DNA of 57,257 nt from a virus. Taxonomy: Duplodnaviria > Caudoviricetes. The position numbers were made by a program, and so were the translations under genes. The stretch lies in IMG/VR virus record IMGVR_UViG_3300038393_002601, positions 1 through 57,257 of that record; one strand, 5' to 3'. A model generated the notes under the pieces. It saw only the letters and a list, made by a program, of their open reading frames with translations. It made no database searches and was not told the DNA's origin. This document shows, piece after piece, positions 8,643-54,367 of this stretch; position 1 is the stretch's first letter, and the number at the start of each line of letters is the position of its first letter.

Positions 8643-9410
8643 ATGGAATTATCACTACACGACTTTATTCAGCTTCAAAAAGAAATCGGTCCCGACGGCT
8701 GGCAACTGTATTCCATCTTACGATTGGTTTCCAATGGGGATACGGTCTTCTTTAAGCAGGATGAGCTCGCAGATCTTCTTGGTGTATCCAGCACTCGAAC
8801 CGTGTATAAACGCCTCAAGGAGTTGCAAAACGTACAAATCAATACCAAACCGCTGTTGAAACAAATCGAGAAACGGCCTGATGGGAATGTCTATCGCTTG
8901 CTTCCGCTAGAGGTCAGCAAAATCGTTCAGGTCCGTAATTCTGATCTGACCGTATATTCTTTAAGTGATAGCTTAGACATGAACAAAAAGGATACAGAAG
9001 TAACGGATGTGCCGACTACTGCTGAAATTACGACAGAGACGCCTGCACAGACCGCAAAACCGACACCTCAGCAGTTAATCGGCTACTGGTCGGATCGGTA
9101 CGAAGAAACGTACGATACGAAATATGTTGTCTCGTGGAAGAAGGATGCACCGCTGATGAAACGACTGCTCATTAATTACGGCGATGAAATGTTACGGGCG
9201 ATCATTGACGTGGTTATGCGAATGTACGATAAGAAATGGAAATCGGCGGCATATACTCGGCCGACAATCGGCCAACTGTCGAGTTGGATTGCCCAGCAGG
9301 CGGAACCATTTGCCAAAGCTAATTTACAAGCGACACAACCGATGCAAGTGGCGACGGAACAATCAAGCGAAGATTTGTTGCAAGCTCTCGAAGAAAAAGG
9401 GTGGTTCTGA
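8643..9410 (+). CDS. Phage replication initiator / replisome organiser (N-terminal wHTH)
   Basis: HTH QDELADLLGVSSTRTVYKRLKEL; C-terminal helical domain (YTRPTIGQL); upstream of DnaC/DnaB. Confidence 0.75.
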   Translation: MELSLHDFIQLQKEIGPDGWQLYSILRLVSNGDTVFFKQDELADLLGVSSTRTVYKRLKELQNVQINTKPLLKQIEKRPDGNVYRLLPLEVSKIVQVRNSDLTVYSLSDSLDMNKKDTEVTDVPTTAEITTETPAQTAKPTPQQLIGYWSDRYEETYDTKYVVSWKKDAPLMKRLLINYGDEMLRAIIDVVMRMYDKKWKSAAYTRPTIGQLSSWIAQQAEPFAKANLQATQPMQVATEQSSEDLLQALEEKGWF

Positions 9411-9676
9411 TGATCGTGTCGTATGAGGAAATCCTTCGGCAAACGTATAATCGGCCTGCTAAGGAAATTGAGATAGTAGATTACAGGTTCACCATTTCAG
9501 CAGCTGGAAATCCTCTCGCCATCATTTACGTGAAGTTGGTTACTGGAGATGTTGATTGTATTCGGATGACCAAGAAAAACGGTGAGTGGCACATGGTTGA
9601 TTATGCGTATGATGCTTTGATTGATGAGAAGATGTTGAATCATCCTAGTTTACGGTTATTATTTCTTGTTCATTAA
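9410..9676 (+). CDS. Small RL-tail family protein
   Basis: Ends MLNHPSLRLLFLVH; ATG overlaps the initiator stop. Confidence 0.75.
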   Translation: MIVSYEEILRQTYNRPAKEIEIVDYRFTISAAGNPLAIIYVKLVTGDVDCIRMTKKNGEWHMVDYAYDALIDEKMLNHPSLRLLFLVH

Positions 9677-9719
9677 CACTGAATACTAATACTAAATCTG
9701 AAACAAGGTGGGGAATTAA

Positions 9720-10064
9720 GTGAACGAATCTCGAATGGATTTAGAAGCTCGAATTAGTTTTGAGTTCGAGATTGAAGCGGCTAGAAGGAAAGATGACAAC
9801 TATTTGATTTATCTTAAGCGTACAAACGATTTTGGTTTTAATGCAGGATTATTGTCTGTTCTTACAAATGATGATCTGGAAATCATCCAAGGGCCTAGAT
9901 TAGTTGTTCCGATTCATGAAATAGAGTTGTTCCAGATGCAAAAACTGATTCGAAATGAACGTCTTTTGATTATCACGGGATGCTATCCCGAAGGATATCC
10001 GGGAGAAATCATCACTAAAGATGGGTACGTTCAAATTTACGATGAGAATAAAGGATGGATTTAG
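9720..10064 (+). CDS. Small RL-tail family protein (subfamily B)
   Basis: LIRNERLLIITGCYP, similar to 14427-14666. Confidence 0.7.
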   Translation: MNESRMDLEARISFEFEIEAARRKDDNYLIYLKRTNDFGFNAGLLSVLTNDDLEIIQGPRLVVPIHEIELFQMQKLIRNERLLIITGCYPEGYPGEIITKDGYVQIYDENKGWI

Positions 10065-10075
10065 GAGGCAAGGCA

Positions 10076-10399
10076 ATGGGATTTCATTCATACGAAGAAG
10101 TTAAGGATCAACTTGTTTTCTATCTAAATATCTGGCCGCACAGCAGAATACCACAATATTTAATGAACGAATTCTTCCAAGGGAATTTTGACGTCGTTGA
10201 TTACCAGGTTGTTCAAGCAACTAAGAGTCTTAAAGGGATAGCTGTACTGCTTAATATCTTAGGAAAACCTGCTGAAATTGATTTTGTTAAATCAGATAAT
10301 GCATGGAAAATTGCTGGAGATCATAGTCAACAATTATGTTTAAAAGAAAAAGAACTGCTTGAACATCCTAAGTTGCGGTTGTTATTTCTTACGCATTAA
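10076..10399 (+). CDS. Small RL-tail family protein
   Basis: RBS AGGAGG; ends LLEHPKLRLLFLTH. Confidence 0.75.
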   Translation: MGFHSYEEVKDQLVFYLNIWPHSRIPQYLMNEFFQGNFDVVDYQVVQATKSLKGIAVLLNILGKPAEIDFVKSDNAWKIAGDHSQQLCLKEKELLEHPKLRLLFLTH

Positions 10400-10449
10400 C
10401 ACTGAATATATTCAATGAATATAAATACTAAATATTGGAGGGTAACTTT

Positions 10450-11154
10450 ATGTTATTACTAGACCAAGAAATCGCGACCACGTGTGCTGCACGTAATCAT
10501 TGTAAATCTCACAATCAACGTTGCTGCGTTACATGTCCTTTGCACATTGATTTAAAACTGCAATTTGAGATGTCGGGGATTCCTAAACGCCACATGAAAT
10601 GGGACGCGGATACGCTGCCAGACGACACCTATCACTTACCAGTTCTCAAGCGTTGGTCCTCGAAAGATATCGAACTTGTGGAATCAGGCAAGGGACTTTA
10701 TTTGCACGGATCCGTTGGAACAGGAAAAACTACTGCGTTATCGGCTTTAGCCATTTCCTACATTGTACATAAATCTATCGCGGATATTCGTACCGGAGAA
10801 CACACGGAGCAATTAGTCCAGTTCATCAATGTTCCAGATCTGCTCGATTTAATTAAGCGTGGATTCGATAACCCAACGATTTCCGATGAAGCGAACGCAT
10901 TGCTTGAGCGACTGAAGCACGTTCCGCTTGTGATATTTGACGATATTGGGGCAGAACGACCATCTGAGTGGTCAAGAGAGCGATTATTGACGCTGATCAA
11001 CTACCGCTATGATAACGAAATGTGCACCTTTTTTAGTTCGAATTTGACGATTCCAGAGCTTGTGGAACAGCTCGGACCACGACTTCAAAGCCGTATTAAC
11101 GGTTCCTGTGCACCGCTTGCCTTTAACGGGCCAGACCGAAGAAAACTGTTTTAA
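10450..11154 (+). CDS. DnaC/IstB-like AAA+ helicase loader
   Basis: N-terminal Cys cluster; GSVGTGKT Walker A; IFDDIGAE; FSSNL; RLQSRI; DRR. Confidence 0.9.
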   Translation: MLLLDQEIATTCAARNHCKSHNQRCCVTCPLHIDLKLQFEMSGIPKRHMKWDADTLPDDTYHLPVLKRWSSKDIELVESGKGLYLHGSVGTGKTTALSALAISYIVHKSIADIRTGEHTEQLVQFINVPDLLDLIKRGFDNPTISDEANALLERLKHVPLVIFDDIGAERPSEWSRERLLTLINYRYDNEMCTFFSSNLTIPELVEQLGPRLQSRINGSCAPLAFNGPDRRKLF

Positions 11155-11177
11155 AAACTAAATTTAGGAGTGAGAGA

Positions 11178-12101
11178 ATGATAGTAAACAAAAGAAATGG
11201 CGTGAACTGGTCTACGTCAGGCAATGAGCGGTGGACGGTTTATAACAGTCGCAAAAACAATGATTCTAAAAAGGGAATTCCTGCAATGTTCGAGGAAATT
11301 GACGAAGTTGTGGGAGGTTATGAATTTGGTTCGGTGATTACGTTGATGGCCGCCACAGGACGCGGAAAATCATGGCTTGGTATTTTATCGGCATTGGTTG
11401 CAAACAATCATGGGTTTTCTTGCTTAATTGAATCAGGGGAAATGTCTGCTACTGAAGTTGAGTTTCGATTGGATACATTAAATGCTGGTTTTTCCAATCG
11501 AGGCTTGTTAAAGGGCTCACTTGAATTTCAAGATGAATTCGAGTATCTCAACTACACTTCAAGTTTTACGGAAGAACACTCCAAACGCCCGCCACTGATT
11601 ATTAAAACACCTGAAGATTGGCCGTATGGTTTGACGCTTCAACAACTGGAAAAAGACATAGACGAAACAGAAGCTCAATTTGTGGTCATTGATCAGTTTA
11701 ACTTGTTTCGATTTAAAAAAGCTACCCATGAAGAAAAGGCAGCACTAAGCAGACAACTCAAACAACTTGCAGCTCGAAAAGGGATTGTTATTTTCCTGCT
11801 CTGTCAAACATCTGGCGAATTCGTTAAGAATGAAAAGAAAGATGCCAAAGGAATCCAGGAGCTGCGGGCACCAGATTTATCTGCGTATGCTGAGACAATC
11901 GCTCTGCAGCAAGACTCCAATCTCTATTATTCGTTTCAATCCGTTGGGTACTATGATAAAAAAGATAACCGCTATCGGGGGAAAGCGGTCTTGAAAATCC
12001 TAAAAGCCAGGGCAGGCATTGAAGGAAACGATGAATTCATCCTGAACTGGTGTCCCAATGATGGGGTTATTAACGTTCGTAAACCTACAGATCTATATTA
12101 A
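11178..12101 (+). CDS. DnaB-like helicase, C-terminal ATPase domain only
   Basis: AATGRGKS Walker A, SGEM, VVIDQ, QD, KAR motifs; 307 aa with no N-terminal domain. Confidence 0.8.
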   Translation: MIVNKRNGVNWSTSGNERWTVYNSRKNNDSKKGIPAMFEEIDEVVGGYEFGSVITLMAATGRGKSWLGILSALVANNHGFSCLIESGEMSATEVEFRLDTLNAGFSNRGLLKGSLEFQDEFEYLNYTSSFTEEHSKRPPLIIKTPEDWPYGLTLQQLEKDIDETEAQFVVIDQFNLFRFKKATHEEKAALSRQLKQLAARKGIVIFLLCQTSGEFVKNEKKDAKGIQELRAPDLSAYAETIALQQDSNLYYSFQSVGYYDKKDNRYRGKAVLKILKARAGIEGNDEFILNWCPNDGVINVRKPTDLY

Positions 12102-12122
12102 AATAATTTTTTTATGTAAACA

Positions 12123-12147
12123 AGGACATTTCAAATATCCTAAAAAT
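12123..12147 (+). promoter_or_regulatory. SigH-like promoter candidate
   Basis: AGGA-N17-AAAT followed by AGATATCA, as at 19423. Confidence 0.45.
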
Positions 12148-12200
12148 AAATAGATATCACAAGTTTCGTACATAAAAAATACCAAAAATGGGGGATTCTC

Positions 12201-12857
12201 ATGTCTTTGAAAGATTTGATCATTGGCTCGGGTGAAACCGCCCGTAAAGCTGTTGACAGTCAACCGAAAAAGAAAACGAATTACATCCGCCTTAAGGATG
12301 GCCAAAGCGTTCGTGGTTTTCTGCTAACGACTGAAATCATTGCGTTTTTCCAACACGGGGATTTCGCGAATAAGATTCACTCGCACGTATGCACGAATCC
12401 ACGTCACGAATCGGGAAAGCAATGTTTAAGCTGCGAATACAACGTACCACGGTCGAAGGTTTGGCTTGTTCCCTTCTATGATATTGACGCTGGCGAAATT
12501 CGGGTTTTCGAGGCGAAGAAGAAGTATATGAACGGTATCTACAGTTTTATTGACCAGTACGAAGAAGAATCGACCACCACGCCTGTTGTTCTAACTCGGT
12601 CTGGATCAGACGCTCAAAGCACCACCTATACGCTTATGCCACTGCGTGTAAAACCAGCGGAAAAAGACTTGTTCGCGGTGCCAAATGTTACGATTGATGA
12701 TTCATTCTACGGTGATGTTCTGCAACCGCTTAGTGAAGAATATCATAAGCAGTTACTCCGAATAACTTCCAGTCAGGAAGAAGAATTCGAAGAGGAAACT
12801 GAAGTCGATCTACTTGACTCCCTTCAGAGCGATCTGTTTAAGAAAAACATGTTTTAG
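12201..12857 (+). CDS. Phage single-stranded DNA-binding protein (gp32-like)
   Basis: RLKDGQSVR, H-x-C..C-x-x-C, R-x-G..TTY-x-L-x-P, acidic C-terminal tail. Confidence 0.7.
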   Translation: MSLKDLIIGSGETARKAVDSQPKKKTNYIRLKDGQSVRGFLLTTEIIAFFQHGDFANKIHSHVCTNPRHESGKQCLSCEYNVPRSKVWLVPFYDIDAGEIRVFEAKKKYMNGIYSFIDQYEEESTTTPVVLTRSGSDAQSTTYTLMPLRVKPAEKDLFAVPNVTIDDSFYGDVLQPLSEEYHKQLLRITSSQEEEFEEETEVDLLDSLQSDLFKKNMF

Positions 12858-12871
12858 TATTACATAACCCC

Positions 12872-13050
12872 GTTAGTGTTCACTTTTACATATAGATTTT
12901 CTTCTTTAGTAAATTTATTATTTATTAACGATTAGTATTAATGATTATTATGTATTAACTATATTACTTACTACTTATAATAAAAACAATTACTATTACT
13001 AATTATTATTGTATATTCATTTTTACTATTACAATTCAGTGAACACTAAC
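12872..13050. other. Very AT-rich segment bounded by a perfect 13-bp inverted repeat, candidate lytic origin
   Basis: GTTAGTGTTCACT (12872-12884) and AGTGAACACTAAC (13038-13050) flank 153 bp of nearly pure A/T directly after the replication genes. Confidence 0.5.
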
Positions 13051-13086
13051 ATTGTTATATAAATATGTAGATACGAGGAATTTGTA

Positions 13087-13380
13087 ATGGCAAGGAATCC
13101 AAAAATGGTAACTATAGAAGGCGTCACCAAACCTCTTCGTGATTGGGCGGAGGAGTTTGGGCTCCGCCCCGTCACGCTTTATAATCGAATTTTTCGCGGG
13201 TATAGCGGTTCTTCTCTTTTGGAACCCACTAGAGAGAGGATGCCGAATATCAGCATCACGATTGATGGTGTTACTCGTACGTTGAATGAATGGTCTGAAA
13301 TCACCGGGGTTTATCGTCAGACGTTGTATTGGCGATATAAGCACGGCATGCGAGGCAAGATGCTGCTAAAAACTGAATAA
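13087..13380 (+). CDS. Tandem HTH DNA-binding protein resembling the C-terminal repeats of HNH homing endonucleases
   Basis: Two repeats TI(E/D)GVT..L.(D/E)W.E..G....TLY.R...G. Confidence 0.7.
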   Translation: MARNPKMVTIEGVTKPLRDWAEEFGLRPVTLYNRIFRGYSGSSLLEPTRERMPNISITIDGVTRTLNEWSEITGVYRQTLYWRYKHGMRGKMLLKTE

Positions 13381-13426
13381 ATCGGTAGAGAGCTAGTTTG
13401 CTAACTACCATTCAAGGGGAAGTCAG

Positions 13427-13852
13427 ATGAAATATATCCTAGAATGCTTCCTCTCTATCCTATCAACTCCAATCGCTTGGATTGCGATTATTTTTGGCTA
13501 TGGTGGTGTGATGCATCTGATTGAAGTTTATCAAAAACACCATCCCAGGAAAGTAACCGTCCAAGATGCCTGGGTGATACGGGATACCGAGGAAAAACAT
13601 TATCTTCTTTTTAACGATTTTAAGGGCAAAGATGATCTGTTGATCGGCACTTTCACGACTTTGGCTTTTACGATCGATAACGATAAAGGAAGATGCGGGC
13701 ATACCCACTATGTGACACTTAAGTTTGAAGTTGGTGAATGGGTTTTCTATTCGTTTGATTGCCCATTTACACATTACTGGGACAAACAGCATTTGGTAGA
13801 ACAGCTTCTTAACCATCCAAAAACACGGCTGCCGCTGCTGCTTGTTTCTTAG
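13427..13852 (+). CDS. RL-tail family protein with N-terminal hydrophobic segment
   Basis: TM-like N-terminus; ends LLNHPKTRLPLLLVS. Confidence 0.75.
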   Translation: MKYILECFLSILSTPIAWIAIIFGYGGVMHLIEVYQKHHPRKVTVQDAWVIRDTEEKHYLLFNDFKGKDDLLIGTFTTLAFTIDNDKGRCGHTHYVTLKFEVGEWVFYSFDCPFTHYWDKQHLVEQLLNHPKTRLPLLLVS

Positions 13853-13861
13853 GGGGAACCT

Positions 13862-14209
13862 ATGAAATTTGATTCTGGAATGGAAATGACCATGGCTTTA
13901 CGTTATGAACCGCATCGACTTAATCTTAATGATGGTTACGATATATTACGGTTAAAAAAAGAGAAGGTCATAAAACAATTATTTAATGGAGAGTTTGAAA
14001 TTGTTGGTTACGACCTAACTAATGTTGAACTCGATGATATAGATAAATGGCTGAAGGTAGGCATCAGGGTTGGTACTGAGGTGGTGGGTCTTTTTTATTG
14101 TAAAGGTCCTGCTGGTTGGTATCCAGATACTTATATTGAAGATGTACGATTGTTTCAATATGAGTTGATGAATCATCCTAAATTGCGTTTATTGTTTGTG
14201 GTGGAGTGA
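13862..14209 (+). CDS. RL-tail family protein
   Basis: Ends LMNHPKLRLLFVVE; LFNGEFEIVGY resembles FFQGNFDVVDY of 10076. Confidence 0.75.
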   Translation: MKFDSGMEMTMALRYEPHRLNLNDGYDILRLKKEKVIKQLFNGEFEIVGYDLTNVELDDIDKWLKVGIRVGTEVVGLFYCKGPAGWYPDTYIEDVRLFQYELMNHPKLRLLFVVE

Positions 14210-14213
14210 TGGA

Positions 14214-14426: not shown

Positions 14427-14666
14427 ATGAGTAAATATGAAGTGGTATCTGCAGAAAAAGTAGAAGACGGATATGTTCTTGCACTGGATGTGCTACGTAA
14501 AAATAAAAGATATTATTTCGGAACTTTGCGTACAGATGAGGATTTTAATGTGATAAGCAAGTTTGATAACGAGTTTAAGAGTATCATTCAACCTTTTATT
14601 AATACGGAACGGACGGCCATTCTAGTAGGTGCTTACCCAGATTTAAAAACATATGGAATCATATAG
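14427..14666 (+). CDS. RL-tail family protein (subfamily B)
   Basis: FINTERTAILVGAYP. Confidence 0.7.
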   Translation: MSKYEVVSAEKVEDGYVLALDVLRKNKRYYFGTLRTDEDFNVISKFDNEFKSIIQPFINTERTAILVGAYPDLKTYGII

Positions 14667-14690
14667 ATTTTACTAGGGGGATTTAACAAA

Positions 14691-14861: not shown

Positions 14862-14863
14862 AG

Positions 14864-15353: not shown

Positions 15354-15620
15354 ATGAATTTCGGCCAAGCGTTAGAAACATTAAAAGAAGGTAAGAAGAT
15401 TAAACGTTCACATTGGAGCGGTTATATAAAATTTGGCACGTTGGAACTGAAGCAAACTCACAGTAGTATTCACGGAAATACCTTTCAATTAGAAATGAAA
15501 ATCAATTTATATGATTCTCGTTATGTAAATATCGACCACGATGAAGTAAAACCAGTAGCAAACACTTTTAACTTAGTTCTTGATGATTTGATAGCAGAAG
15601 ATTGGATGGTGGTTAAATGA
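15354..15620 (+). CDS. DUF2829 / Tad2-like anti-defence sponge protein
   Basis: MNFGQAL..LK.GKKI.R..W.G and D..AEDW.V signatures. Confidence 0.8.
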   Translation: MNFGQALETLKEGKKIKRSHWSGYIKFGTLELKQTHSSIHGNTFQLEMKINLYDSRYVNIDHDEVKPVANTFNLVLDDLIAEDWMVVK

Positions 15621-15922
15621 TTACTATGCAAAAATCAATTCCATCTTTTAACATTTCAAATGTGGAGATGACTCCTTTATTCAAATTACATTCCAGTGAT
15701 TATAAAACACTCATATGTTTTATAACTATTTATTTCGTTATAAAAGAAGAGCCTGATATTCGAAACTTTAGAACATTTTATTTCAAAAATGGTAAGTGGA
15801 ATATGTGTAGAAATGATTTTTATGATAAAGATTTAGAAATTCTTTTGTTTCATCCTAGTGTTCGATTAGATGTTCTGTTTCTTCCAGCGGAAGAACCAAA
15901 GAAGGTGGTGTTCAATGATTGA
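15617..15922 (+). CDS. RL-tail family protein
   Basis: KNGKW like KNGEW of 9410; LLFHPSVRLDVLFL. Confidence 0.7.
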   Translation: MITMQKSIPSFNISNVEMTPLFKLHSSDYKTLICFITIYFVIKEEPDIRNFRTFYFKNGKWNMCRNDFYDKDLEILLFHPSVRLDVLFLPAEEPKKVVFND

Positions 15923-16322
15923 TATCCGACATTTCATCGTTCCTGGGAGACCTTGCCCAAAAGAGCGTCCACGTTTCTTTCGCGGCAAAGCAATAACCCC
16001 GATGAAAACACAACATTATGAAGCAATAATTCGTAATGAATATCAAAACGCCCATGGAGATAAAACACCGTATGAGTGTGATCTCGAAGTGGGCGTTTTT
16101 GTTTTTTTAAATGATAGACGTCATGGGGACTGCGATAATTACGCCAAAGTCGCCCAGGATGCGTTAAATAAAATCGCTTGGAAAGACGACAAACTGATTA
16201 AACAACTCACCGTATACCTCGTGATAGATAAGAAAGAATCCACACGCCTCGAAATGGTCATTCAGCCACTCAATGATTCCTTCCGCGAAACCATCCAAAA
16301 CCAATTAGAATCCCATAATTAA
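15915..16322 (+). CDS. rusA: RusA-like Holliday junction resolvase
   Basis: G.P.PK.RPR, D.DN..K...DALN...W.DD..I motifs. Confidence 0.9.
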   Translation: MIDIRHFIVPGRPCPKERPRFFRGKAITPMKTQHYEAIIRNEYQNAHGDKTPYECDLEVGVFVFLNDRRHGDCDNYAKVAQDALNKIAWKDDKLIKQLTVYLVIDKKESTRLEMVIQPLNDSFRETIQNQLESHN

Positions 16323-16429: not shown

Positions 16430-16708
16430 ATGAAGTTTGATCTTGAATTTATCGATACATTTTTTCAACGCAATCACTATATGGTTTACCTTGCTGTCAA
16501 TCAAAACAAGGATAATCTTAACTTTTTTGTACAAGTAGATCCTGAAAGTTTTAAAGTCGTAGATATTTCTTGGTTTATGAGATTGATGGAGTTTTTGAAC
16601 ATGCCTAGAACGGATTGGTACATGTTTAAAGATGCCGTTGATCAATTCATTCATAAAAATCGTTTGGCCATTCTACTTACATCCCAGGAAGAGAAGTCAC
16701 ATGTATAA
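16430..16708 (+). CDS. RL-tail family protein (subfamily B)
   Basis: RBS AAAGGAG; FIHKNRLAILL. Confidence 0.7.
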   Translation: MKFDLEFIDTFFQRNHYMVYLAVNQNKDNLNFFVQVDPESFKVVDISWFMRLMEFLNMPRTDWYMFKDAVDQFIHKNRLAILLTSQEEKSHV

Positions 16709-17378
16709 GATAAACGATGAACAATTAAAAGAATGGATTAAACAAGCGAAAGACGGTGACCGCGAAGCAGCTGCAAGGATCGTGGAAACATGCAAACCTT
16801 TAATTCTCAAGCTGGTTTATAAAATGCCACTCCTTGTTGCTGGCTATAGTGCGGAAGATTTATTTCAAGAAGGGATGCTTCACCTTTACAATTCCATCTT
16901 TACTTTTGATCCAACAAAAGACGTACAGCCGACTGCTTTCTTTTATCACTGTGCAAGAAGAAAGCTGTATACGTTAATTCTAAAGTCGAGAAACCATAAA
17001 AATTCGGTTTTAAATACTAGTTTTTCGTTAGATCAAACGTTGAATGAAGCTGAAGAAACCACATATTACACTGTTATTTCTGCAAATGAAGCGTATGGTA
17101 CGCAAAGTCTATGCTACCATGACCCTGCTAAGTGTACGGATGTTAAAGAATCCTTACACCTGGCCAACGATTTTTTACATAACCAATGCTCGAAATTGGA
17201 ACGAAAGGTATATGAGCTTTATCTTGAAGGATATTCTTACGAGAAGATTGTAGAGACACTGCAACTTAAGAATATAAAAATGGTGGACAATACCATTCAA
17301 CGCGTCCGAAAAAAGTTAGGTACCTTTGATTTATATAATTATTCTCCAACTCCTTCACGGAAGAAGAGAATTCTATGA
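16701..17378 (+). CDS. SigH-like RNA polymerase sigma factor
   Basis: EDLFQEG, LN.S.SLD, S.LE..V..LYL.G.SY..I, DN.IQRVRKKL match SigH/Spo0H regions 2-4. Confidence 0.88.
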   Translation: MYKINDEQLKEWIKQAKDGDREAAARIVETCKPLILKLVYKMPLLVAGYSAEDLFQEGMLHLYNSIFTFDPTKDVQPTAFFYHCARRKLYTLILKSRNHKNSVLNTSFSLDQTLNEAEETTYYTVISANEAYGTQSLCYHDPAKCTDVKESLHLANDFLHNQCSKLERKVYELYLEGYSYEKIVETLQLKNIKMVDNTIQRVRKKLGTFDLYNYSPTPSRKKRIL

Positions 17379-19363
17379 AAAAGATAGATGATGATTTATT
17401 AATACAATTAATTCAACAAGCGAAAGATGGCGATCGGGAAGCAATAGCACGTTTCTTGGAAGAATGTAAGTCTATTGTTCGAAAGGCGATCAATAAGACA
17501 CGAATTTATGTCACCGGGTTTTCTTCTGATGATTTATTCCAAGAAGGCATGCTAACGATTTATGAAGACATGTTTGATTTTGATCCAACAAAAGGGATAC
17601 CAAGTTTATTCTTTTACATGTGTGTAAAGAAAAGACTACTTGCTTTAATTACTAAGTCTGCAAACCATAAGAATTCGGTTTTAAATAGCAGTTGCTCATT
17701 GGACAGCCCCATGAAAGAGGATGGAGATACGTTTTACGCTATGACCTCCGCAGATGATGCGTATGGCACGCAAAGTTTAATCTATCAAGATCCTGCGAAG
17801 TGCTTGGACGTAAAGGAATCGTTACACCTTGCTAGAGATTTTTTTCAGAACAAATGCACGGATAAGGAGCGGAAAATCTATGAGCTTTCTGTGGAGGGTT
17901 TTTCATATCAGCAGATTGCCGAAAAGCTCCAGCTTCGCAATAAGAAAACCGTAGATAACACGATTCAACGGGTACGTAAGAAACTTGGCAACTGCGATTT
18001 TGAAAATTATCAACCTGAATCGATTGAAAATCCTGTTAAGGAGAAAAAGAAATCCATGAAAAAGTTTGATAATGATCTGTTATCCGAATGGATTCCAAAA
18101 GCTAAAAATCGCGACCGTTTTGCCATGAAAGCTATTTTAGATATGGCTACTCCTTTTGTAGAAGGTTTCATACGAAAGAAAGGATATTATGCCAAAGGTT
18201 CTGAGTTTGAAGATTTGGTTCAAGAAGGTTTAATTGCAGTAACAAAAGCAGTCGAACAATATGATTCAGATAAAGGAGTCGTACCTTCTTCTTTTATGGC
18301 CATGGTGATCGAACGGGCTTTGGCTTCTGCCTTAATAGCGGCAAACCGTAAAAAACACCAAGTTCTTAGTGATTCTGCCTCGCTTGATAAACCAGCAGCC
18401 GAAGATTCGAATTACAATCACTCATTAGTAGATACAATCACATATGAAATTGAAACCTATGATCCGTATTCCTTAATGTATGATGATCCAGCAAGCAGCC
18501 TTGAAATGCAAGAGATCCTGGAGCAGGCTCAAGACTATTTGAACTATCATTGTTCAAAAACCGAAAAACAAATCTTTGATCTTCATCTTCATGCATGTAG
18601 TTACACTGAAATTGGAGAACAACTGAATGTAACGAATAAAGCAATTGATAACGCGATTCAGCGAGTAAAAAGGAAATTAAGGGATTTTAAACCTTATGAT
18701 GTACCTGATACACCGCCTACAAAGATTCAAAAATCGGAGGAGAAATCGATGCGACTAATGAAAGAAGATACATTTCGTTTAATGGAACTGCTTCTGCTGC
18801 CTAAAGAGCAAAGGTCACAAAGGTTGGATGACCTGCGAGAACAATTTGGTGCAGATCTGCTGAAACGAAATCGCTCAAATTTAAAAACACTGGGTTATGT
18901 TGAAGGTTCTGGCGATTATTGCGAATGTGACTTAACCGATAAAGGTCGAGAACGTTATGAAGCAAATAAACATCGATTCTCTTCGATCCTATCGTCCGTT
19001 AGCAGTAATACGATTGAAGAATCATTTGAAAATGTTAAGCACGCTTTAAACAAAACTGGCGAAAAGTTAGGAGAAGTGGCTACGGAAATCAGTGGAAAGA
19101 TGTCTCAAGCCGTATCTCAAATCGCGGATTATGTATCTACGCCTTCTCAAGTAGAAAAAGTAGAAATCGTTGAAAAAACCGAACCCGATAAAGTAGTTGA
19201 AATCCCAATGAATAACTCAACGGACCAGCTCATGCTGTTGCTAAGACAAAATTTCGAGGAAAAAGATCGTGAAATTGCAGCTTTGAAAGAACAAGTTGAA
19301 TCGTTGCAATCTACATTACGTGAAGTAAAAAGTGTATTTGAAAAAATAAATATAGCGATTTAA
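17375..19363 (+). CDS. Fusion of two SigH-like sigma domains plus C-terminal wHTH/coiled-coil domain
   Basis: Two complete SigH-like units (residues ~1-215 and ~228-440), then LK.LGYV....LTDKGR wing motif and coiled coil; internal RBS+ATG at 18056 and 18749. Confidence 0.85.
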   Translation: MKKIDDDLLIQLIQQAKDGDREAIARFLEECKSIVRKAINKTRIYVTGFSSDDLFQEGMLTIYEDMFDFDPTKGIPSLFFYMCVKKRLLALITKSANHKNSVLNSSCSLDSPMKEDGDTFYAMTSADDAYGTQSLIYQDPAKCLDVKESLHLARDFFQNKCTDKERKIYELSVEGFSYQQIAEKLQLRNKKTVDNTIQRVRKKLGNCDFENYQPESIENPVKEKKKSMKKFDNDLLSEWIPKAKNRDRFAMKAILDMATPFVEGFIRKKGYYAKGSEFEDLVQEGLIAVTKAVEQYDSDKGVVPSSFMAMVIERALASALIAANRKKHQVLSDSASLDKPAAEDSNYNHSLVDTITYEIETYDPYSLMYDDPASSLEMQEILEQAQDYLNYHCSKTEKQIFDLHLHACSYTEIGEQLNVTNKAIDNAIQRVKRKLRDFKPYDVPDTPPTKIQKSEEKSMRLMKEDTFRLMELLLLPKEQRSQRLDDLREQFGADLLKRNRSNLKTLGYVEGSGDYCECDLTDKGRERYEANKHRFSSILSSVSSNTIEESFENVKHALNKTGEKLGEVATEISGKMSQAVSQIADYVSTPSQVEKVEIVEKTEPDKVVEIPMNNSTDQLMLLLRQNFEEKDREIAALKEQVESLQSTLREVKSVFEKINIAI

Positions 19364-19475: not shown

Positions 19476-19790
19476 ATGAAAATTATTGAAATGGAAACAC
19501 ATAGTGTTCGAATGGTTGATCATCGGAGAGATATTGTCTATGACTTTCCTATGTTATCGCTAACCATTGAATTCATGGAAGATCATCATGAATTTGAAAT
19601 CGTTAGAGAAGAAAATATCCCTGAGTTAGATAGAAAATATTACTTTTACTATGAAGGCTACGCCATAAGGCATCGTAAAAGTTATGACTTAAATGGAATT
19701 TACAAGTCTATCAACTTCGACTTTACGCCACTTATTCCTAAAGTGGTGAATGAAGTACCAGAAACAAGACTTCAGCTTTTATTTTTGTAA
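19476..19790 (+). CDS. RL-tail family protein (PETRL subfamily)
   Basis: Ends NEVPETRLQLLFL; paralog of 20083. Confidence 0.75.
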   Translation: MKIIEMETHSVRMVDHRRDIVYDFPMLSLTIEFMEDHHEFEIVREENIPELDRKYYFYYEGYAIRHRKSYDLNGIYKSINFDFTPLIPKVVNEVPETRLQLLFL

Positions 19791-19813: not shown

Positions 19814-20086
19814 TTGTTGTATTGGAAAGATGGTAGGGATTTATTCGAATGGGAAGCGTCACGCGAATTCGAAGAAGTGGCAACAACACTGATTGATCAT
19901 GGTTACAAAGATGCTGCGAAAGAAGTGCTAAATCTAAAATACACGATCGAACAAGCCATTGTGCGTGCAGATGTGTTGTTTGAGCGTTTGAAAGGTGTTA
20001 TTCAAGCTGCTGAAAAAGTAGAGGATGGGAATTGGAATAAAGATGCTCTTGTTAAAGCTGTAAATGAATATAGGGGCGAGAAATGA
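19814..20086 (+). CDS. Hypothetical phage protein
   Basis: RBS AAGGAG, helical 90 aa. Confidence 0.7.
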   Translation: MLYWKDGRDLFEWEASREFEEVATTLIDHGYKDAAKEVLNLKYTIEQAIVRADVLFERLKGVIQAAEKVEDGNWNKDALVKAVNEYRGEK

Positions 20087-20406
20087 TATTAAAAATCATA
20101 TCAGTTGTTAAAGGAACGGCAAGGATAGATTCCTTCAACATAAACACCAATAGTTATGATCACTTTGAATATCCTTATTTACATCTTAAATTCGAATTAA
20201 ATGGAGAAGAACATGAACTAAGGATTTCAAGGAAAGAAGTTATTCCCAATTTCGATAAAAATGAGCATTTATTCTTCGAAAAGTTTGCATTTTCATTTCC
20301 AGCGAGTATGAATAAAGATCCTCAAGAATTGTATTTTTATATTCCATGGTTGGATCAAATCATTAATGAATTTCCAGAAACGAGACTGGCACTATTATTC
20401 TTATAA
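20083..20406 (+). CDS. RL-tail family protein (PETRL subfamily)
   Basis: Ends NEFPETRLALLFL. Confidence 0.75.
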   Translation: MILKIISVVKGTARIDSFNINTNSYDHFEYPYLHLKFELNGEEHELRISRKEVIPNFDKNEHLFFEKFAFSFPASMNKDPQELYFYIPWLDQIINEFPETRLALLFL

Positions 20407-20464
20407 CATGTTGTTATTCAGTAACACTGAACAGTAATAATTAACATATTAGGAGGTTTATATT

Positions 20465-21193: not shown

Positions 21194-21195
21194 TT

Positions 21196-48689: not shown

Positions 48690-49125
48690 CCTTTGAATAA
48701 AAGACCCAAAACCTTCTTGTCTTTGTTTTGGTCTTGGAATTCCAAGGAGATCTTTTGTCTTTTGTTTCTGGTAGACTTTAAAACCTAAAAGATTGCTTTG
48801 TAATCAAGAACTAAAACCATAAAAGGTCTTTTGTTTTTGATATTCAAGGGAGATCTTTTGGTCTTTTCAATCTTTTAAACACGCTAGAACGCTTTAGACG
48901 TTAGTAACGTATATCGAAAAATCGTAGCAAAGAAGCATTTCATAACGTTATTTTACGTAGATGAAAAACAGGTCAGCAATTTCGTGCAAACCACTTCAAA
49001 GTCTTGTGCTACAAGGCTTTAAGAGTGGTCAGCAAATTTGTGCATCCTCTATATATATTTATATATATATTTATAAATAATTAATTAATTATTAAATAAC
49101 TGGGGGTGGAACGAAATTGCGTACC
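48690..49125. other. Candidate plasmid origin: iteron-like repeats + AT-rich unwinding element
   Basis: GGAGATCTTTTG(G)TCTTTT x2 plus degenerate copies; GGTCAGCAA.TT.GTGCA x2 (48971, 49027); pure A/T run ~49049-49099. Confidence 0.55.
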
Positions 49126-49493
49126 CCTAGATTTCTTGAAAAAATTTCTGAAATTTTTTTAGCGAATGAAGTACGGATTAAAAGAGACGATGTGCAAAGG
49201 GGGGCGGCCTGGGGTCGACATTGGTGATTTTGGCGTGAATGTGCGTCTGACACTTAGCGTATCAAATTTCAACGGTGGGCCATCTCTTGCGAAGGGGTGG
49301 CTAGGGGTACTCATTATCCAGCCAACATTGCTTTGAATTCCAATCAGATTGTTCCTACGATCACCTGGATATCTAACCCATTGATATCTTGTTGTTTTCT
49401 TTGTTTGTTTTGATTGTTCATTTTTGTTTTCTGTTCTTTGGTAGGCATATCCCCCCCTCTACCCCCTACCCCTCATATGAGCTTAAAGAATGC

Positions 49494-49635
49494 ATGTCCC
49501 AAAAACGAACGTATTCTGTATATCCCGTTTGGAACATAAAAAAGTGCCACCAATCCACATGAAGATTGTCCTAAAAACGTGTCCTAAAAATATTTTGTCC
49601 TTTTTGTTGACTTGAAACGTTTTTGGGATATAGTA
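49494..49635. promoter_or_regulatory. res site of the serine resolvase
   Basis: TGTCCYAAAAA x3 with inverted partners (TTTGGAACA, TTTTGGGATA) overlapping the resolvase promoter region. Confidence 0.65.
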
Positions 49636-49670
49636 AGGATGTACAGGTAATTTTTAGGAGGTGTATAGAT

Positions 49671-50240
49671 ATGTTTTTAGGATATGCAAGGGTTTCAACG
49701 AAAGATCAACACTTGGAAATGCAAATAGACGCACTGGTTAAAGCTGGCGTTGATTCACGAAACATTTTTATGGAGAAGGCATCTGGCAAAAACACCGAAC
49801 GCCCCGAGCTTAAAAAGCTCCTTGACTATGCAAAAGAAGGAGATACTATCGTTGTTTTTAAATTAGATCGTATCTCCCGTTCGGTTAAAGATATGTTGGA
49901 ACTTATGACGGAATTTGAAAAGCGTGGAATTCATTTTATTTCGATTCAAGATAGTATTGATACATCCAACGCCATGGGACGATTCTTCTTTAAAGTTATC
50001 GCCAGTATCGCAGAACTCGAAAGGGAAATCATTGTCGAACGTACCATGTCAGGGTTGGAAGCTGCAAAAGCTCGCGGAAATTTCGGAGGACGTCCAAAAA
50101 CAGACAACACGAAACTTGAAATGGCTTATGAACAATACACAAGTGGTAAATACACCGTCAAGGAGATCTGCAACAGTTTAAACTTAACACGATCGGTTTT
50201 CTACCGCTACGTCGACGAGCGAAAAGCATCCGCCAACTAA
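49671..50240 (+). CDS. Small serine resolvase (multimer resolution)
   Basis: GYARVST..Q, SG....RP.L, GD..VV.KLDR..RS, ERT..GL..A..RG..GGRP, C-terminal HTH. Confidence 0.95.
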   Translation: MFLGYARVSTKDQHLEMQIDALVKAGVDSRNIFMEKASGKNTERPELKKLLDYAKEGDTIVVFKLDRISRSVKDMLELMTEFEKRGIHFISIQDSIDTSNAMGRFFFKVIASIAELEREIIVERTMSGLEAAKARGNFGGRPKTDNTKLEMAYEQYTSGKYTVKEICNSLNLTRSVFYRYVDERKASAN

Positions 50241-50785
50241 GATGGCAGGGTGCTTTTTTATGCGTTTTTCGGGCCGAATTGTCACACGCTTGCATTACCC
50301 CCCCTATATTTGGGCGTTTATTAAACGCGTGCGAGGAACTCATGGCGTTTATCCCGTTTTTGGACGCTGCTGGTCGCCTCGGCCGCCTGCTACGTATCCA
50401 AATGTATATCACGTATCCCCACGTATCTCTCCGCAGAAAAACATTATGTAGCGAATCCTACAACGTACTACCCCCGTATCTTCATTTTTTTACGCCATTT
50501 TCTTACGTTTATCTGTTCGGGAATATAACGAATGGGAAACGGTACAAAAGATGCGTTATTCCTGCGTTTTCGACGTCATTTCACCACGTCAAACACAAGC
50601 CAAATTGGAATCGATCATCTGTGTCAGAATGGACGAAATTTAAACGAGTGTTTAAACGAGAAATGAATCGTCTTCACAAGTGAAACACTGGCGATAAAAA
50701 ATCAAATTCGCTAACATGTTTAAATATTTTTGTTGCAATTTACAAAATATGGATTATTTTGAGAGAGACAAGGAAGGTGATAATT

Positions 50786-51036
50786 ATGTTTGGTAAGAAA
50801 CAAACTGTAGATCCTGTTCCCGTTTATACGGTTCATACTATACCCAGAAAATATCAAATAATTGGTTCTGTGGCTGTAAAATGGGGAGGTTTTAAAGAAT
50901 TAGAGATATCGAGGTTTTCGAAAAATTAGGTTTAAAAGGTGCTGAAATGAGTGCGGATGCAGTTATTGGCCTGTTTGTGGTTGTGACGAATGTATCTACT
51001 ACTGCTTTTGGCACTGCGATAAAGTATGTGGTTTGA
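50786..51036 (+). pseudogene. Frameshifted YbjQ-like protein
   Basis: Frame 1 MFGKK...YQIIG stops at 50927; shifted frame encodes ADAVIG...FGTAIK. Confidence 0.6.
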
Positions 51037-51053
51037 CTAGGATGTGATTTTCA

Positions 51054-51374
51054 ATGATACAAGATATCCAAATTGTTCATGAAGATGAAATGGATTGGAA
51101 AGGTGAGGTGTTCGGTTTTATCATTCAGTACCGGTATCGAGAAAATATGTATGTTTCTTACTACTATCGAGCCACCCATCCGATTGATTTGAAAGCTGCT
51201 GAAAAAGAATGCTACACTGATCGAAGCTTCATCCGATTTACATTCAAAACGTTTGATGGAGGTTATGGAGCTCCATCACGGCTACATAATAAAACAAAAG
51301 AAATGATTCTCAAGGAATTAGATGCATTCGTTGAAAGTCATTCGAAATATCGATTGTTGTTTTTGTTTAATTAG
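51054..51374 (+). CDS. RL-tail family protein (HSKYRL subfamily)
   Basis: Ends FVESHSKYRLLFLFN. Confidence 0.75.
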   Translation: MIQDIQIVHEDEMDWKGEVFGFIIQYRYRENMYVSYYYRATHPIDLKAAEKECYTDRSFIRFTFKTFDGGYGAPSRLHNKTKEMILKELDAFVESHSKYRLLFLFN

Positions 51375-51385
51375 GAGGGATCTTA

Positions 51386-51616
51386 ATGAGTAAAACCTAT
51401 GAACAAATCTTAGGGTTTGATCAATTAACTATAGACCAGCAGGAATTGTTCCAGCGGGTGCATCAAAAGCATCTGCAGGCATTGGGGACCGAGGCAAGAA
51501 AATTTTATACCATTGATCAGATACGTGAAGTGAGATGGGATCATGAAGATGAAACTGTTAATGTTTATTTTGAAGATGATTGGTGGCATTACACAGACGA
51601 TGAAAAATGGTATTAA
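51386..51616 (+). CDS. Hypothetical protein
   Basis: RBS AGGAGG; WWHY..WY C-terminus. Confidence 0.7.
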   Translation: MSKTYEQILGFDQLTIDQQELFQRVHQKHLQALGTEARKFYTIDQIREVRWDHEDETVNVYFEDDWWHYTDDEKWY

Positions 51617-51935
51617 TTTGAGGTAATAAGCCGAATAATTGGTTTCATGTTGGACATACTAAAAAGGCACACAAGAAACCAACCTGTTTGCGGCGATTTC
51701 TTGAGGATTTACGCTAGTTTCACAAGTAGAAAATATTCCGTGTTCATCAACACGGAATATTTTCTTTTTTCACTGGAAATATTACTAATGAGTCGTAGAA
51801 TTTCGCTTAAAGTTGTGAAAAAGATTCCGTATTCAAAAATACGGAATCTTTTTTCACTAATACTGTTCAGTGTTATGTATGATTATTACTGAATATGGAA
51901 ATATTAGTAATGCAGACTTATTTAGGAGGACCTCT

Positions 51936-52217
51936 ATGATCTCAGACATGCAACTTTATTGTGAAGAAGAACTGGACGAGTGTTTTTTCTTTCAAGTCGA
52001 ATTCACCTACTCCAAAAAGCGATACGTGACTCATTTAGTTCATTACTTTAGTAGGTCCCACCGACCAAATGAAACGGCTCTAATGAGTACGTACAACCAC
52101 ATGGGAACTGAAGTGACGTTTCCGATTGAATTGGAAAAACAAATGATTACTGAGCTGATGGAGTATGTTAAGCAACACTCGAAATATCGTTTGTTGTTTT
52201 TAATGGACGTGGTGTAG
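51936..52217 (+). CDS. RL-tail family protein (HSKYRL subfamily)
   Basis: RBS AGGAGG; ends YVKQHSKYRLLFLMDVV. Confidence 0.78.
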   Translation: MISDMQLYCEEELDECFFFQVEFTYSKKRYVTHLVHYFSRSHRPNETALMSTYNHMGTEVTFPIELEKQMITELMEYVKQHSKYRLLFLMDVV

Positions 52218-52219
52218 CC

Positions 52220-52501
52220 ATGATTTCGAACATCAACATCATCAGTCATGAAGAACATGAACCCTGCTTCTTAATCGAGATGGAGTTTAGGTATCGAACG
52301 CGAATGTATACTACGTTTTTGGTGCGTTACTTCAGCTACTCGCACCGACCAGACGAAACGTTCATCACGGGCGTGTTTAACGCTTCTGGCATAGAAGTTC
52401 GATTCTCAGACGCTAACCAGAAACGTATTGCCGATGAGCTGCTGAATTACATCAAGCAACATCCGAATTTTCGTTTGTTGTTTTTATTGGATGCGATCTA
52501 A
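52220..52501 (+). CDS. RL-tail family protein, tandem paralog of 51936
   Basis: YFS.SHRP.ET shared; ends YIKQHPNFRLLFLLDAI. Confidence 0.78.
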   Translation: MISNINIISHEEHEPCFLIEMEFRYRTRMYTTFLVRYFSYSHRPDETFITGVFNASGIEVRFSDANQKRIADELLNYIKQHPNFRLLFLLDAI

Positions 52502-52566
52502 CGAGATTTCCGCTAAAAGTGAAGTCTCGTTTTTGTTTTCTTCTTACGCTACGATGAATTCAGGAG

Positions 52567-52836
52567 TTGATATGCGTGATAGATGCGGAGAAGCATGATT
52601 TTGATCTGGTGAAATGGCACTGGAACGATGGCGGGCGTGAGGCGGTCTTTACGTTAACAGACAAGGTGGGACGTAGGTGCATGTTTACCATGCTGGTAGA
52701 CGAGGAGATTGAGTATGCATCAGGGGTGGAAATTACCGAAGACGGCCGTATTGGTGAGTACGATCAAGCGTTTTTGGATGAGTTGGCGGAGCGGGCATTA
52801 AAGCAGTGGCGTACATATTTACTGATACATAAGTAA
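52567..52836 (+). CDS. Small protein, possible RL-tail family member
   Basis: Ends ALKQWRTYLLIHK; flanked by two related terminators starting AACGAGATTTCCG. Confidence 0.65.
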   Translation: MICVIDAEKHDFDLVKWHWNDGGREAVFTLTDKVGRRCMFTMLVDEEIEYASGVEITEDGRIGEYDQAFLDELAERALKQWRTYLLIHK

Positions 52837-53013
52837 GCAAAATAAACGAGATTTCCGTAAGGGGATCTCGTTGGTGTTATTGCATCTATGTGAAACCCAT
52901 AGCGGGCGATATACTAGTCTATGCAGCTGCAACGTAATTTAGAACCTAGCGAAGCGGAAAAATGCGAGACGCGAGGATCCCTAGTAAAAAGCAAACGATA
53001 TACATCATCATCC

Positions 53014-53223
53014 TTACAGCCCCTTAAAAATATCTGAAAGACGGATTTTTCGGTTTTCTTGGATCGCTTTAAGATTATCCAGGAACTCATGTAGCGTTAG
53101 CTCAATGCAAAATAAAGGACATTGCTCCTGAAGGCAGGTATCCATTTTCGTGTAGAATACACATTGCTCCATGCAAAATTGGTCAATTTCGTGTTGAATC
53201 TGGAGTAACCCCATCGCCTGCAT
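53014..53223 (-). CDS. Small Cys-containing hypothetical protein
   Basis: C...C......C....CPL; RBS GGAGG. Confidence 0.6.
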   Translation of the reverse strand: MQAMGLLQIQHEIDQFCMEQCVFYTKMDTCLQEQCPLFCIELTLHEFLDNLKAIQENRKIRLSDIFKGL

Positions 53224-53494
53224 CCTCCGTCACTAATCTTTGCATCATATAGCTTTTCGCTTCTGAGAAACATGTAAACATTCTCACGCGGCGTCCTGGC
53301 TCGAGGACAAAAAATTCCATGTCGGCCAGATTCAATTTCATTTCCAATTGCCTTGTTGCATTCCAGATCCTGAAATGGAACTTATGAATTTTCTCCAGGT
53401 GGGCCCCTAGTTCATTGCAGCTTTTCTGAAAGAAACCAATCTTGGAGGCATATAAGGTTTGGTTGAATTTGCTGATGTCTTTTAACTTTTTCAT
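53183..53494 (-). CDS. Hypothetical protein
   Basis: 103 aa, overlaps the next gene. Confidence 0.55.
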   Translation of the reverse strand: MKKLKDISKFNQTLYASKIGFFQKSCNELGAHLEKIHKFHFRIWNATRQLEMKLNLADMEFFVLEPGRRVRMFTCFSEAKSYMMQRLVTEDAGDGVTPDSTRN

Positions 53495-53552
53495 AATATT
53501 TTTCCCATTTTTGAATAAATTGTGGTATTATTTTCAAAATTACTGTTCAGTA

Positions 53553-53819
53553 TTAAGGTTCAGTATTGTTTAAGTCTAAATTGGTTATAATGTCTAAACG
53601 ATTCGTGAATATCCACATTTTTAAATCATCAAGAAATATTTTTGTTGCGTCTTCGAATTCGTAGTCAACGTACAACACGTGCGTGCATTCAAAACGTTCA
53701 TTTAGCAGCAATCCCCATTCGAAATCGATACGGAGAAAGCGGTTTACTCCGTAGGAATTGCCGCGAATGAATGTCGTTTGAGGATTTAGTTCTTTAATGT
53801 TTGTGATGATATGATTCAT
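53553..53819 (-). CDS. RL-tail family protein (subfamily B-like)
   Basis: RBS AAAGGGG, ATG 53819; WIFTNRLDIIT. Confidence 0.65.
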   Translation of the reverse strand: MNHIITNIKELNPQTTFIRGNSYGVNRFLRIDFEWGLLLNERFECTHVLYVDYEFEDATKIFLDDLKMWIFTNRLDIITNLDLNNTEP

Positions 53820-53851
53820 TTGATTCCCCTTTCGAATTGGAGGTGATGGGT

Positions 53852-54367
53852 ATGCCATTAGTTGTATTTGAAACACGAGTGACACTGGAATATGATTATG
53901 CTTCCCGTTGGTACGCTGGTTGCGTGGATTCCAACGGTATGATTCGTTTGAAGAAATACGCGAAGAATGGAAAGGAAACGGTGGGCCTGCGAAATACACG
54001 CAAGCAGATGCCAGCCGAAGAATTCTACGAGCTGCTCGAGACGGGTAAATTGCGAATTATCGAATCGCTTCACGAGCCAACGTCCATTCAACGTGCTTTT
54101 GACGATCCGCACATTGAGTATGCGTGGCTGCACGAGTATGGCGACTCTACCAGGGATGCGTTCTATGGGGAATCCCCTTACTATGAGCTGCTCGTTAAAC
54201 TGAAGGATGTGGATCCCGTGTTCAAGGTTGCCATTGTAAATGAAACGATTCTCTATGTGGCTACTGAACGGTTTGAAGTTTGGGACATGACTGATCAGCA
54301 AAAATCGAAATTGTATGATGCGGTTCATACCTACAAACCGTTACAACTAGAACTCTTACTTTATTAA
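53852..54367 (+). CDS. Hypothetical protein with RL-tail-like C-terminus
   Basis: RBS GGAGGTG; ends VHTYKPLQLELLLY. Confidence 0.7.
   Translation: MPLVVFETRVTLEYDYASRWYAGCVDSNGMIRLKKYAKNGKETVGLRNTRKQMPAEEFYELLETGKLRIIESLHEPTSIQRAFDDPHIEYAWLHEYGDSTRDAFYGESPYYELLVKLKDVDPVFKVAIVNETILYVATERFEVWDMTDQQKSKLYDAVHTYKPLQLELLLY

Follow-up and report, generated by a model that had tools for sequence, protein, structure and literature searches.

The window analysed here is the complete 57,257-bp, single-contig virus record IMGVR_UViG_3300038393_002601 from IMG/VR (throughout, the window means this whole stretch at its full length). It is the genome of an uncultured siphovirus-type phage that carries ten small plus-strand genes whose products end in a shared tail, phi-phi-[EN]-H-P-K-x-R-L-(x0-2)-L-F-[LVI]. 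Together the ten genes occupy 3165 nucleotides (nt), or 5.5% of the genome, and are dispersed over two regions of its 57 kb. They belong to replication and regulation operons away from the head genes, with members lying between replication and sigma genes, in agreement with the remark in an earlier first-pass annotation that they are scattered between core replication genes. With the starts implied by that annotation, most of them have a plausible ribosome site. BLAST sorts the products into groups A (g9410, g10076, g13862), B (g19476, g20083) and C (g51054, g51936, g52220) and two singletons (g13427 and g15617), each gene being named here by its start position. Two of the proteins were modelled with AlphaFold2, and their mean predicted local distance difference test (pLDDT) values are included below.

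9410..9676, plus strand: group A, 88 amino acids; tail NHPSLRLLFLVH, encoded at 9638-9673
10076..10399, plus strand: group A, 107 amino acids; tail EHPKLRLLFLTH; AlphaFold2 mean pLDDT 73, predicted tail helix at residues 98-106
13427..13852, plus strand: singleton head with a hydrophobic N-terminus, 141 amino acids; tail NHPKTRLPLLLVS
13862..14209, plus strand: group A, 115 amino acids; tail NHPKLRLLFVVE; of the window members, the nearest to the four copies on fragment G001 (described below)
15617..15922, plus strand: singleton head, 101 amino acids; tail FHPSVRLDVLFL, followed by 12 further residues; its counterpart on fragment G002 (described below) ends RLDLLFLP
19476..19790, plus strand: group B, 104 amino acids; tail VPETRLQLLFL at the extreme C-terminus
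20083..20406, plus strand: group B, 107 amino acids; tail FPETRLALLFL at the extreme C-terminus
51054..51374, plus strand: group C, 106 amino acids; tail SHSKYRLLFLFN
51936..52217, plus strand: group C, 93 amino acids; tail QHSKYRLLFLMDVV
52220..52501, plus strand: group C, 93 amino acids; tail QHPNFRLLFLLDAI; AlphaFold2 mean pLDDT 88.6, predicted tail helix at residues 82-92

The words CACTGAATA / CACTGAACA stand directly after the stop codons of three of these genes (9677-9690, 10400-10413 and about 20407-20436).

The first-pass annotation had proposed that about 15 proteins share this C-terminal tag. All 15 peptide strings that it quoted are present at gene 3′ ends, 14 on the plus strand and one (FTNRLDII) on the minus strand, the position attached to each string being that of the gene start. 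An antisense reading of the strings as a ribosome-binding site plus ATG is ruled out, as they are the 3′ ends of sense-strand open reading frames (ORFs). The regular expression RL.{0,2}L[FL][LV] occurs within the last 22 residues of 10 of 106 candidate proteins, against a mean of 0.041 and a maximum of 2 in 2000 within-protein shuffles. This expression was composed after the data had been seen; the margin over the shuffles is nonetheless very large, and the motif is significant relative to shuffled C-termini. A 25-column hidden Markov model (HMM) of the tail scores the ten members at 29.0-38.7 bits, the next best of 1010 six-frame segments reaching 5.1 bits. None of the eight looser candidates (9720, 14427, 16430, 20705, 53553, 52567, 53852 and 6169) does better than E = 47 with this model, which leaves ten strict members from the original set of about 15. 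When whole groups were left out of training, the tail HMM recovered the A members at E 6e-4 to 8e-3, g13427 at 1.6e-3 and g15617 at 0.026; B (E 1.7) and C (E 0.78) came out top among the untrained segments, yet not significantly.

Outside the tail, the groups diverge. Aligned by hhalign, groups A and C match in the tail alone, over 13-16 columns (E 2.9e-4 to 5e-5), and the match between A and B is weak (10 columns, E 0.025). With the tails removed, 66 cross-group Smith-Waterman comparisons of the heads gave group mean z-scores from -0.66 to 1.45, against a control mean of 0.11 with a standard deviation of 1.08. The BLAST groups, the head-only z-scores and the tail-only hhalign matches all bear out the earlier description of highly divergent heads that fall into subfamilies and share a constant tail. 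The head types form at least five groups in the window, and at least six when the related contigs are counted.

Such a repeat might be a DNA- or RNA-level signal, for example a terminator, a recombination joint or the ribosome-binding site of the next gene, or else a chance pattern. A nucleic-acid signal would accommodate the short DNA identity found within some groups (g51936 and g52220, for instance, agree in 4 of 4 codons). Between groups, however, most synonymous sites differ: at degenerate tail sites that encode the same residue, identical codons are found at mostly 0-1 of 3-5 positions. The invariant tail Arg is encoded by four codons, CGG, CGT, CGA or AGA, thus by both the CGN and AGA classes, and tail Leu by TTA, TTG, CTG or CTT. 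The stop codon and the next start are separated by anything between 2 and about 65 nt, the tail codons are rich in T and do not resemble a Shine-Dalgarno sequence, and in none of the window tail genes does the tail overlap the ribosome site of the next gene. A chance pattern, for its part, is contradicted by ten occurrences where 0.04 are expected in shuffles. We regard this explanation, in either version, as close to refuted. Because the synonymous tail codons are scrambled, selection on the tail, judged from the sequences, acts at the amino-acid level. The comparison of codons between groups showed no trace of recent gene conversion or of recently shuffled tails. The tail is thus a genuine and old feature, under strong selection at the protein level.

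The curated libraries hold no counterpart of these proteins. All ten lack a Pfam family (seven were searched at E ≤ 1, the C members at E ≤ 0.1) and an NCBIfam 20 match, the best hit in PHROGs v4 (E 0.056) is below a useful level, and profile searches of the Protein Data Bank (PDB) with alignments A6 and A10 gave best E values of 0.31 and 0.077. Among the papers listed on conserved C-terminal motifs in paralogous small phage proteins, none was relevant by title or abstract, and none was found for RLLFL together with bacteriophage. The supposition that the family is undescribed therefore holds for Pfam, PHROGs, NCBIfam and PDB sequences alike.

Relatives elsewhere are few. Translated searches (tblastn) with g10076 and g52220 found nothing at E ≤ 1 among 50,697 phage records, and homologue searches returned g10076 itself alone for that protein and the window’s own proteins alone for alignment A3. 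The search with alignment A6 returned the window’s own proteins together with P0009 and P0010 from JGI, which are left aside here. With the group A profile, HMMER was run exhaustively over 1.84 billion representatives and yielded six proteins at E ≤ 0.001, five of them the window’s own. The one foreign match, P0008 (E 3.9e-4), ends HHPKLRLLFIVE and is encoded on the IMG/VR fragment G001 (19,145 bp, 26% complete), where four tandem A-type genes, all ending [HD]P[KR]xRLLF[VI]VE, lie upstream of small ORFs and terminase genes. A 38.7-kb contig carries P0008 as well. Besides the A family, the window and this 13-kb G001 locus share a weak small-terminase match and one marginal match (o8643_9410+, E 0.009). 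A narrow DNA pattern for the tail occurs at 11 places in IMG/VR, ten of which are short chance ORFs. The eleventh is fragment G002 (19,029 bp, 32% complete), which bears five tail genes: two of a new head type, ending EHP[KH]ARLLFLFI; a C-type gene that is 28% identical to g51936 (E 1e-12) and retains PKYRLLFL; one ending RLDLLFLP, like g15617; and one ending KKTRLLLLFA. Of these five tails, three are recovered by the tail HMM trained on the window (E 2e-7 to 6e-5) and two are found by regular expression only. G002 is distantly related to the early region of the window, with a DnaB-like protein at 28% identity, a DnaC-like protein at 25% and one small ORF at 44%; two small ORFs are shared.

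Across the three contigs there are thus 19 tail proteins (10 in the window, 4 on G001 and 5 on G002) that carry phi-phi-[EN]-H-P-K-x-R-L-(x0-2)-L-F-[LVI] followed by 0-12 residues. The Arg and the first Leu are invariant in all 19, in contigs that may or may not come from independent samples. Searches for related loci in viral contigs found none for the DnaB-like protein or for alignments A2, A3 and A4, and only the G001 contig again for alignment A7; P0008 had none in metagenome contigs, and neither A7 nor the large terminase (TerL) had any in genome contigs. The TerL search in viral contigs reached L006, an IMG/VR fragment of 14,187 bases that is a relative of the structural module without tails. 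Its genes from the small terminase to the tape measure are mostly 46-68% identical to those of the window (range 28-68%) and in the same order; the fragment contains no early region and is uninformative on the tail family. On the sequence evidence, then, the tail proteins are a genuine, undescribed and narrowly distributed phage protein family.

The AlphaFold2 model of g52220 (group C) has strands at residues 2-13, 16-25, 28-37 and 47-53 and helices at 64-80 and 82-92, that is, four consecutive strands, a 17-residue helix, His-Pro and then the tail as a second helix. The model of g10076 (group A) has two extra N-terminal helices, strands at 39-47, 53-61, 64-73 and 76-79, short helices and the tail helix, which falls in the last two 10-residue blocks (pLDDT 84 and 80). 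The hydrophobic helix attributed to the tag is thus predicted in both proteins, and the beta-rich N-terminal parts noted with it are predicted in groups A and C, the two groups modelled. The models suggest that these groups have one shared plan, consisting of a four-strand beta meander, a helix, a His-Pro kink and the tail helix, because the entries common to their top-50 structural matches align to the same parts. In these lists, made with VIA-align from 48,161 chains, the two models share seven entries (2i9z_A, 7jta_B, 3jv1_A, 3k44_A, 7fi4_A, 5g3q_B and 4n4x_A), and SpoVG, the best match, aligns to residues 1-86 of the C model and 38-107 of the A model. Foldseek found no match to either model at E ≤ 0.001 in the PDB or BFVD. 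The ESM Atlas held no match at 0.9 or more; its structural neighbours are unnamed viral or Bacillota proteins with template modelling (TM) scores of 0.52-0.66.

The conserved block spans about 20 residues and runs from the preceding helix through H-P-K-x-R into LLFL with no linker. The helical hydrophobic moment of the tail is low (0.14-0.33), compared with 0.49-0.63 for the preceding helix of groups B and C; the tail is not amphipathic, and its hydrophobic residues point all round. As a helix, the tail therefore needs burial. A membrane-targeting helix is ruled out by the low hydrophobic moment. A prediction of a complex between g10076 (alignment A6) and g52220 (alignment A3), run with no controls, scored 0.02 and 0.00 against a mark of 0.32 and is neutral on binding.

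We favor, with a probability of roughly one half, the reading that these genes form a single multigene family of small alpha/beta phage proteins, old and fast-diverging, whose tail is an integral helix under strong constraint. It is favored because the tail has no linker and no amphipathicity and the two modelled groups share a topology, and because head and tail occur together in counterparts from other phages (the C-type gene of G002 and the four A-type genes of G001), with no trace of tail shuffling. We infer a single fold for all groups, in which each protein would combine an antiparallel beta-sheet head, an amphipathic helix, a His-Pro kink and a short, all-hydrophobic helix (R-L-L-F-L). 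The tail would then be a part of the fold, not a tethered peptide, with its Leu and Phe side chains buried, most likely against the protein’s own sheet next to the preceding helix; a self-association interface is also possible. The tail would be under far stronger purifying selection than the heads, which would have drifted or been driven beyond sequence detection. The proteins may be small binders or inhibitors that are expressed early, the heads providing the variable surfaces with which they bind their targets.

Several observations weigh against this reading. The head z-scores are indistinguishable from controls, leaving no sequence similarity between the heads of different groups, and a common head origin is not shown, because hhalign aligns 10-16 tail columns only. 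Two of at least six head types have been modelled, and the sequence of group B suggests more strands. In the C model, the pLDDT of the tail drops to 75 and then 59, and every structural match has a Z score of 7.2 or less, which is the tool’s own range for common arrangements. A purely structural helix, moreover, would not normally exceed the rest of its core so far in conservation.

This last point bears on the question of whether the tail is a buried core helix and nothing else, so that there is no shared partner or system and the genes are an ordinary family of orphan paralogs whose most constrained segment happens to be C-terminal. Such a view draws on the same structural evidence as the integral-tail reading (the common topology of A and C and the low moment), and no partner was found in the tests made. 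It has to explain, however, why H-P-K-x-R-L-L-F-L is near-invariant when no similarity is left in the sheet or the first helix. The near-invariance holds even in orthologue-like pairs at 28% identity and exceeds what core packing usually demands, and we consider this account improbable. The same excess of conservation, at the amino-acid level and beyond the usual packing need, counts in favor of a portable docking tag, the proposal of the first-pass annotation. Such a module would be exposed or releasable and would connect many unrelated heads to a single partner. That partner could be a chaperone or other hub of the host, a protease or its adaptor, or the capsid interior, a site of the Hsp70/DnaK type being a concrete option by analogy. 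The tail is the sole shared sequence among at least six head types in 19 proteins from three phage contigs, its Arg and first Leu never vary, and there are several copies per genome (10, 4 and 5). NRLLLTG, the heptapeptide bound in the substrate cavity of DnaK (PMC3709807), resembles the tail, and the T4 internal proteins (PMC3012670) offer a precedent.

Against a docking tag stand the lack of a flexible linker, the continuity of the predicted helix with the fold, the absence of amphipathicity and the single topology of the two modelled groups; for these reasons an integral helix fits at least as well as a portable tag. What became of the original proposal, a modular system in which a constant tail docks and variable heads diversify, is that its conserved tail on dissimilar heads stands and its docking step is disfavored by these features. 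Nothing in the analysis ties the family to export, packaging or a protease, or to anti-defence or sporulation, all of which that proposal had suggested as possibilities. The free C-terminus is not what is read, as 0 to 12 variable residues follow LFL; this also rules out a terminal degron read from the free C-terminus. No phage-encoded partner common to the three contigs came to light, two of which (G001 and G002) are fragments at 26% and 32% completeness. DnaK-type motifs are reportedly very common in proteins, so the resemblance to a DnaK ligand carries little information. A docking tag is, in our judgment, less likely than an integral helix but still a serious possibility. An equally tentative form of the idea is that the H-P-K-x-R-L-L-F-L helix is a portable handle by which a small clade of soil phages plugs a diversifying set of unrelated small effector heads, 4-10 per genome, into one hub, either a DnaK/Clp-type chaperone or protease of the host or the capsid interior. 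By analogy, such a handle would be the C-terminal counterpart of the T4 targeting sequence, acting from early genes.

Profile matches define the remainder of the genome. The minus strand encodes a tape measure protein, a large terminase, a portal, a weak major-head match and a GH25 endolysin, and the plus strand encodes DnaC-like and DnaB-like proteins, SSB, RusA and three sigma-70-family units. In the latter region, a stand-alone sigma-70-family protein is followed by a 662-residue protein with two more region-2/region-4 sets, and the group B tail genes sit immediately downstream of these sigma genes. A ParA-type ATPase, a resolvase, a DUF4238 protein and a TPR-HEPN protein are also encoded.

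439-1413, plus strand: DUF4238 (profile match)
4394-5893, minus strand: TPR and HEPN_LA2681 protein (profile match)
15870-16322, plus strand: RusA-type Holliday-junction resolvase (PF05866, E 3.8e-19), overlapping the 3′ end of the tail gene at 15617-15922 by about 50 nt
16632-19363, plus strand: the sigma-70-family genes
49623-50240, plus strand: serine resolvase (profile match)
56619-57257, minus strand: ParA-type ATPase (AAA_31; profile match), truncated by the window end

The ParA-type ATPase, serine resolvase, DUF4238 and TPR/HEPN_LA2681 genes amount to plasmid-like maintenance and defence-like functions within a phage genome. Megablast of two window stretches against GenBank phages found no near relative. 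The large terminase is at most 39% identical to that of any GenBank phage and 32-33% identical to those of Bacillus and Paenibacillus phages. Given these terminase relatives and the GGAGG-type ribosome sites in the window, the host is probably a member of the Bacillota. The sole sequencing run listed as containing the window is a DNA soil metagenome, possibly its source, with no RNA run listed.

Three of the looser candidates (9720, 14427 and 16430) make up a weak family of their own, marked by the internal motif phi-x-x-[EN]-R-x-x-I-[IL]-x-G, exemplified by NERLLIITG, TERTAILVG and IERLGIITG. Their alignment, A8, does not align with the tail families.

9720-10064, 14427-14666 and 16430-16708, window: members of the E-R-x-x-I-I-x-G family (alignment A8)
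11250-11528 and 10924-11253, minus strand of G002 (locus L009): members of the same family (A8 HMM, E 8.6e-9 and 6.7e-4)

The E-R-x-x-I-I-x-G and tail families co-occur in the window and in G002. The best-conserved small ORF of this pair of contigs encodes an unnamed 110-residue protein (window 6857-7189, minus strand; G002 13744-14076, minus strand; 44% identity). Near it, in similar positions by eye, both contigs encode proteins of about 98 residues with a Cys-x2-Cys ... His ... Cys arrangement (window 6169-6462, minus strand; G002 13005-13304, minus strand), between which tblastn gave no match at E ≤ 0.01.

Roughly a tenth of the genes of this phage belong to a nameless family without relatives in curated libraries, and the pattern of a nearly invariant 12-residue tail on proteins that have otherwise diverged throughout is unusual. 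Should the tail serve to attach these proteins to a common partner, it would add a new example of how phages assemble sets of exchangeable effectors, and it could be used directly as a tag to search metagenomes for them. If it is instead the core helix of one fold, the family would show clearly how extremely heads can diverge while their scaffold stays fixed, and would be useful for studying the evolution of small phage binder proteins.

Bacterial docking peptides at C-termini include the clamp-binding motifs QL[SD]LF and QLxLxL, the ClpX-binding tail of SspB and the C-terminal tip of SSB. Like them, the tail is a short hydrophobic motif at or near the C-terminus that is potentially common to unrelated proteins. 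Those peptides sit on flexible linkers and bind in extended form, whereas the tail is predicted to be helical and contiguous with the fold; the clamp-binding consensus begins with Gln, whereas the first motif position is Arg in all 19 proteins. A second likeness is to the heptapeptide NRLLLTG, bound in the DnaK substrate cavity (PMC3709807): both have a basic residue followed by a hydrophobic, Leu-rich stretch, 4-5 residues long in DnaK substrates of this type, and the tail has R-L-(x0-2)-L-F-[LVI] in 19 of 19 cases. A DnaK-type site would call for a motif that is accessible and extended in the native protein; AlphaFold2 predicts a helix here, at pLDDT 59-84. The internal proteins of phage T4 carry a targeting tag that is removed by the prohead protease. 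T4-type internal proteins are diverse, defence-countering proteins that share only a short targeting sequence (PMC3012670); like the tail family, they are small and varied, number several per genome and have one short conserved peptide, and a role against host systems is ascribed to their variable bodies. In T4 the tag stands at the N-terminus and loads the proteins into the scaffolding core (PMC3012670), whereas the motif here lies 0-12 residues from the C-terminus in all 19 proteins, is predicted to be helical and belongs to genes in replication and regulation operons rather than among the head genes. The NRLLLTG resemblance and the T4 precedent are leads, not tests.

A last comparison concerns SpoVG and other small sheet-plus-helix binders, from which the tail proteins differ in having 4-6% identity to them and a tail helix that falls mostly outside the aligned range; none of the ten matches the Pfam SpoVG family (PF04026). 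The likeness to SpoVG (2i9z_A) consists of a beta meander followed by a C-terminal helix, with a Z score of 7.2 and a root-mean-square deviation (rmsd) of 3.6 over 76 aligned residues for the C model and a Z score of 3.8 and an rmsd of 3.7 over 64 aligned residues for the A model, both within the tool’s background. A similar sheet-plus-helix arrangement is found in the anti-CRISPR protein AcrIF13 (7fi4_A), an anti-Cas9 protein (7jta_B), CdiI (8ssm_D) and an immunity protein (9l5u_D).

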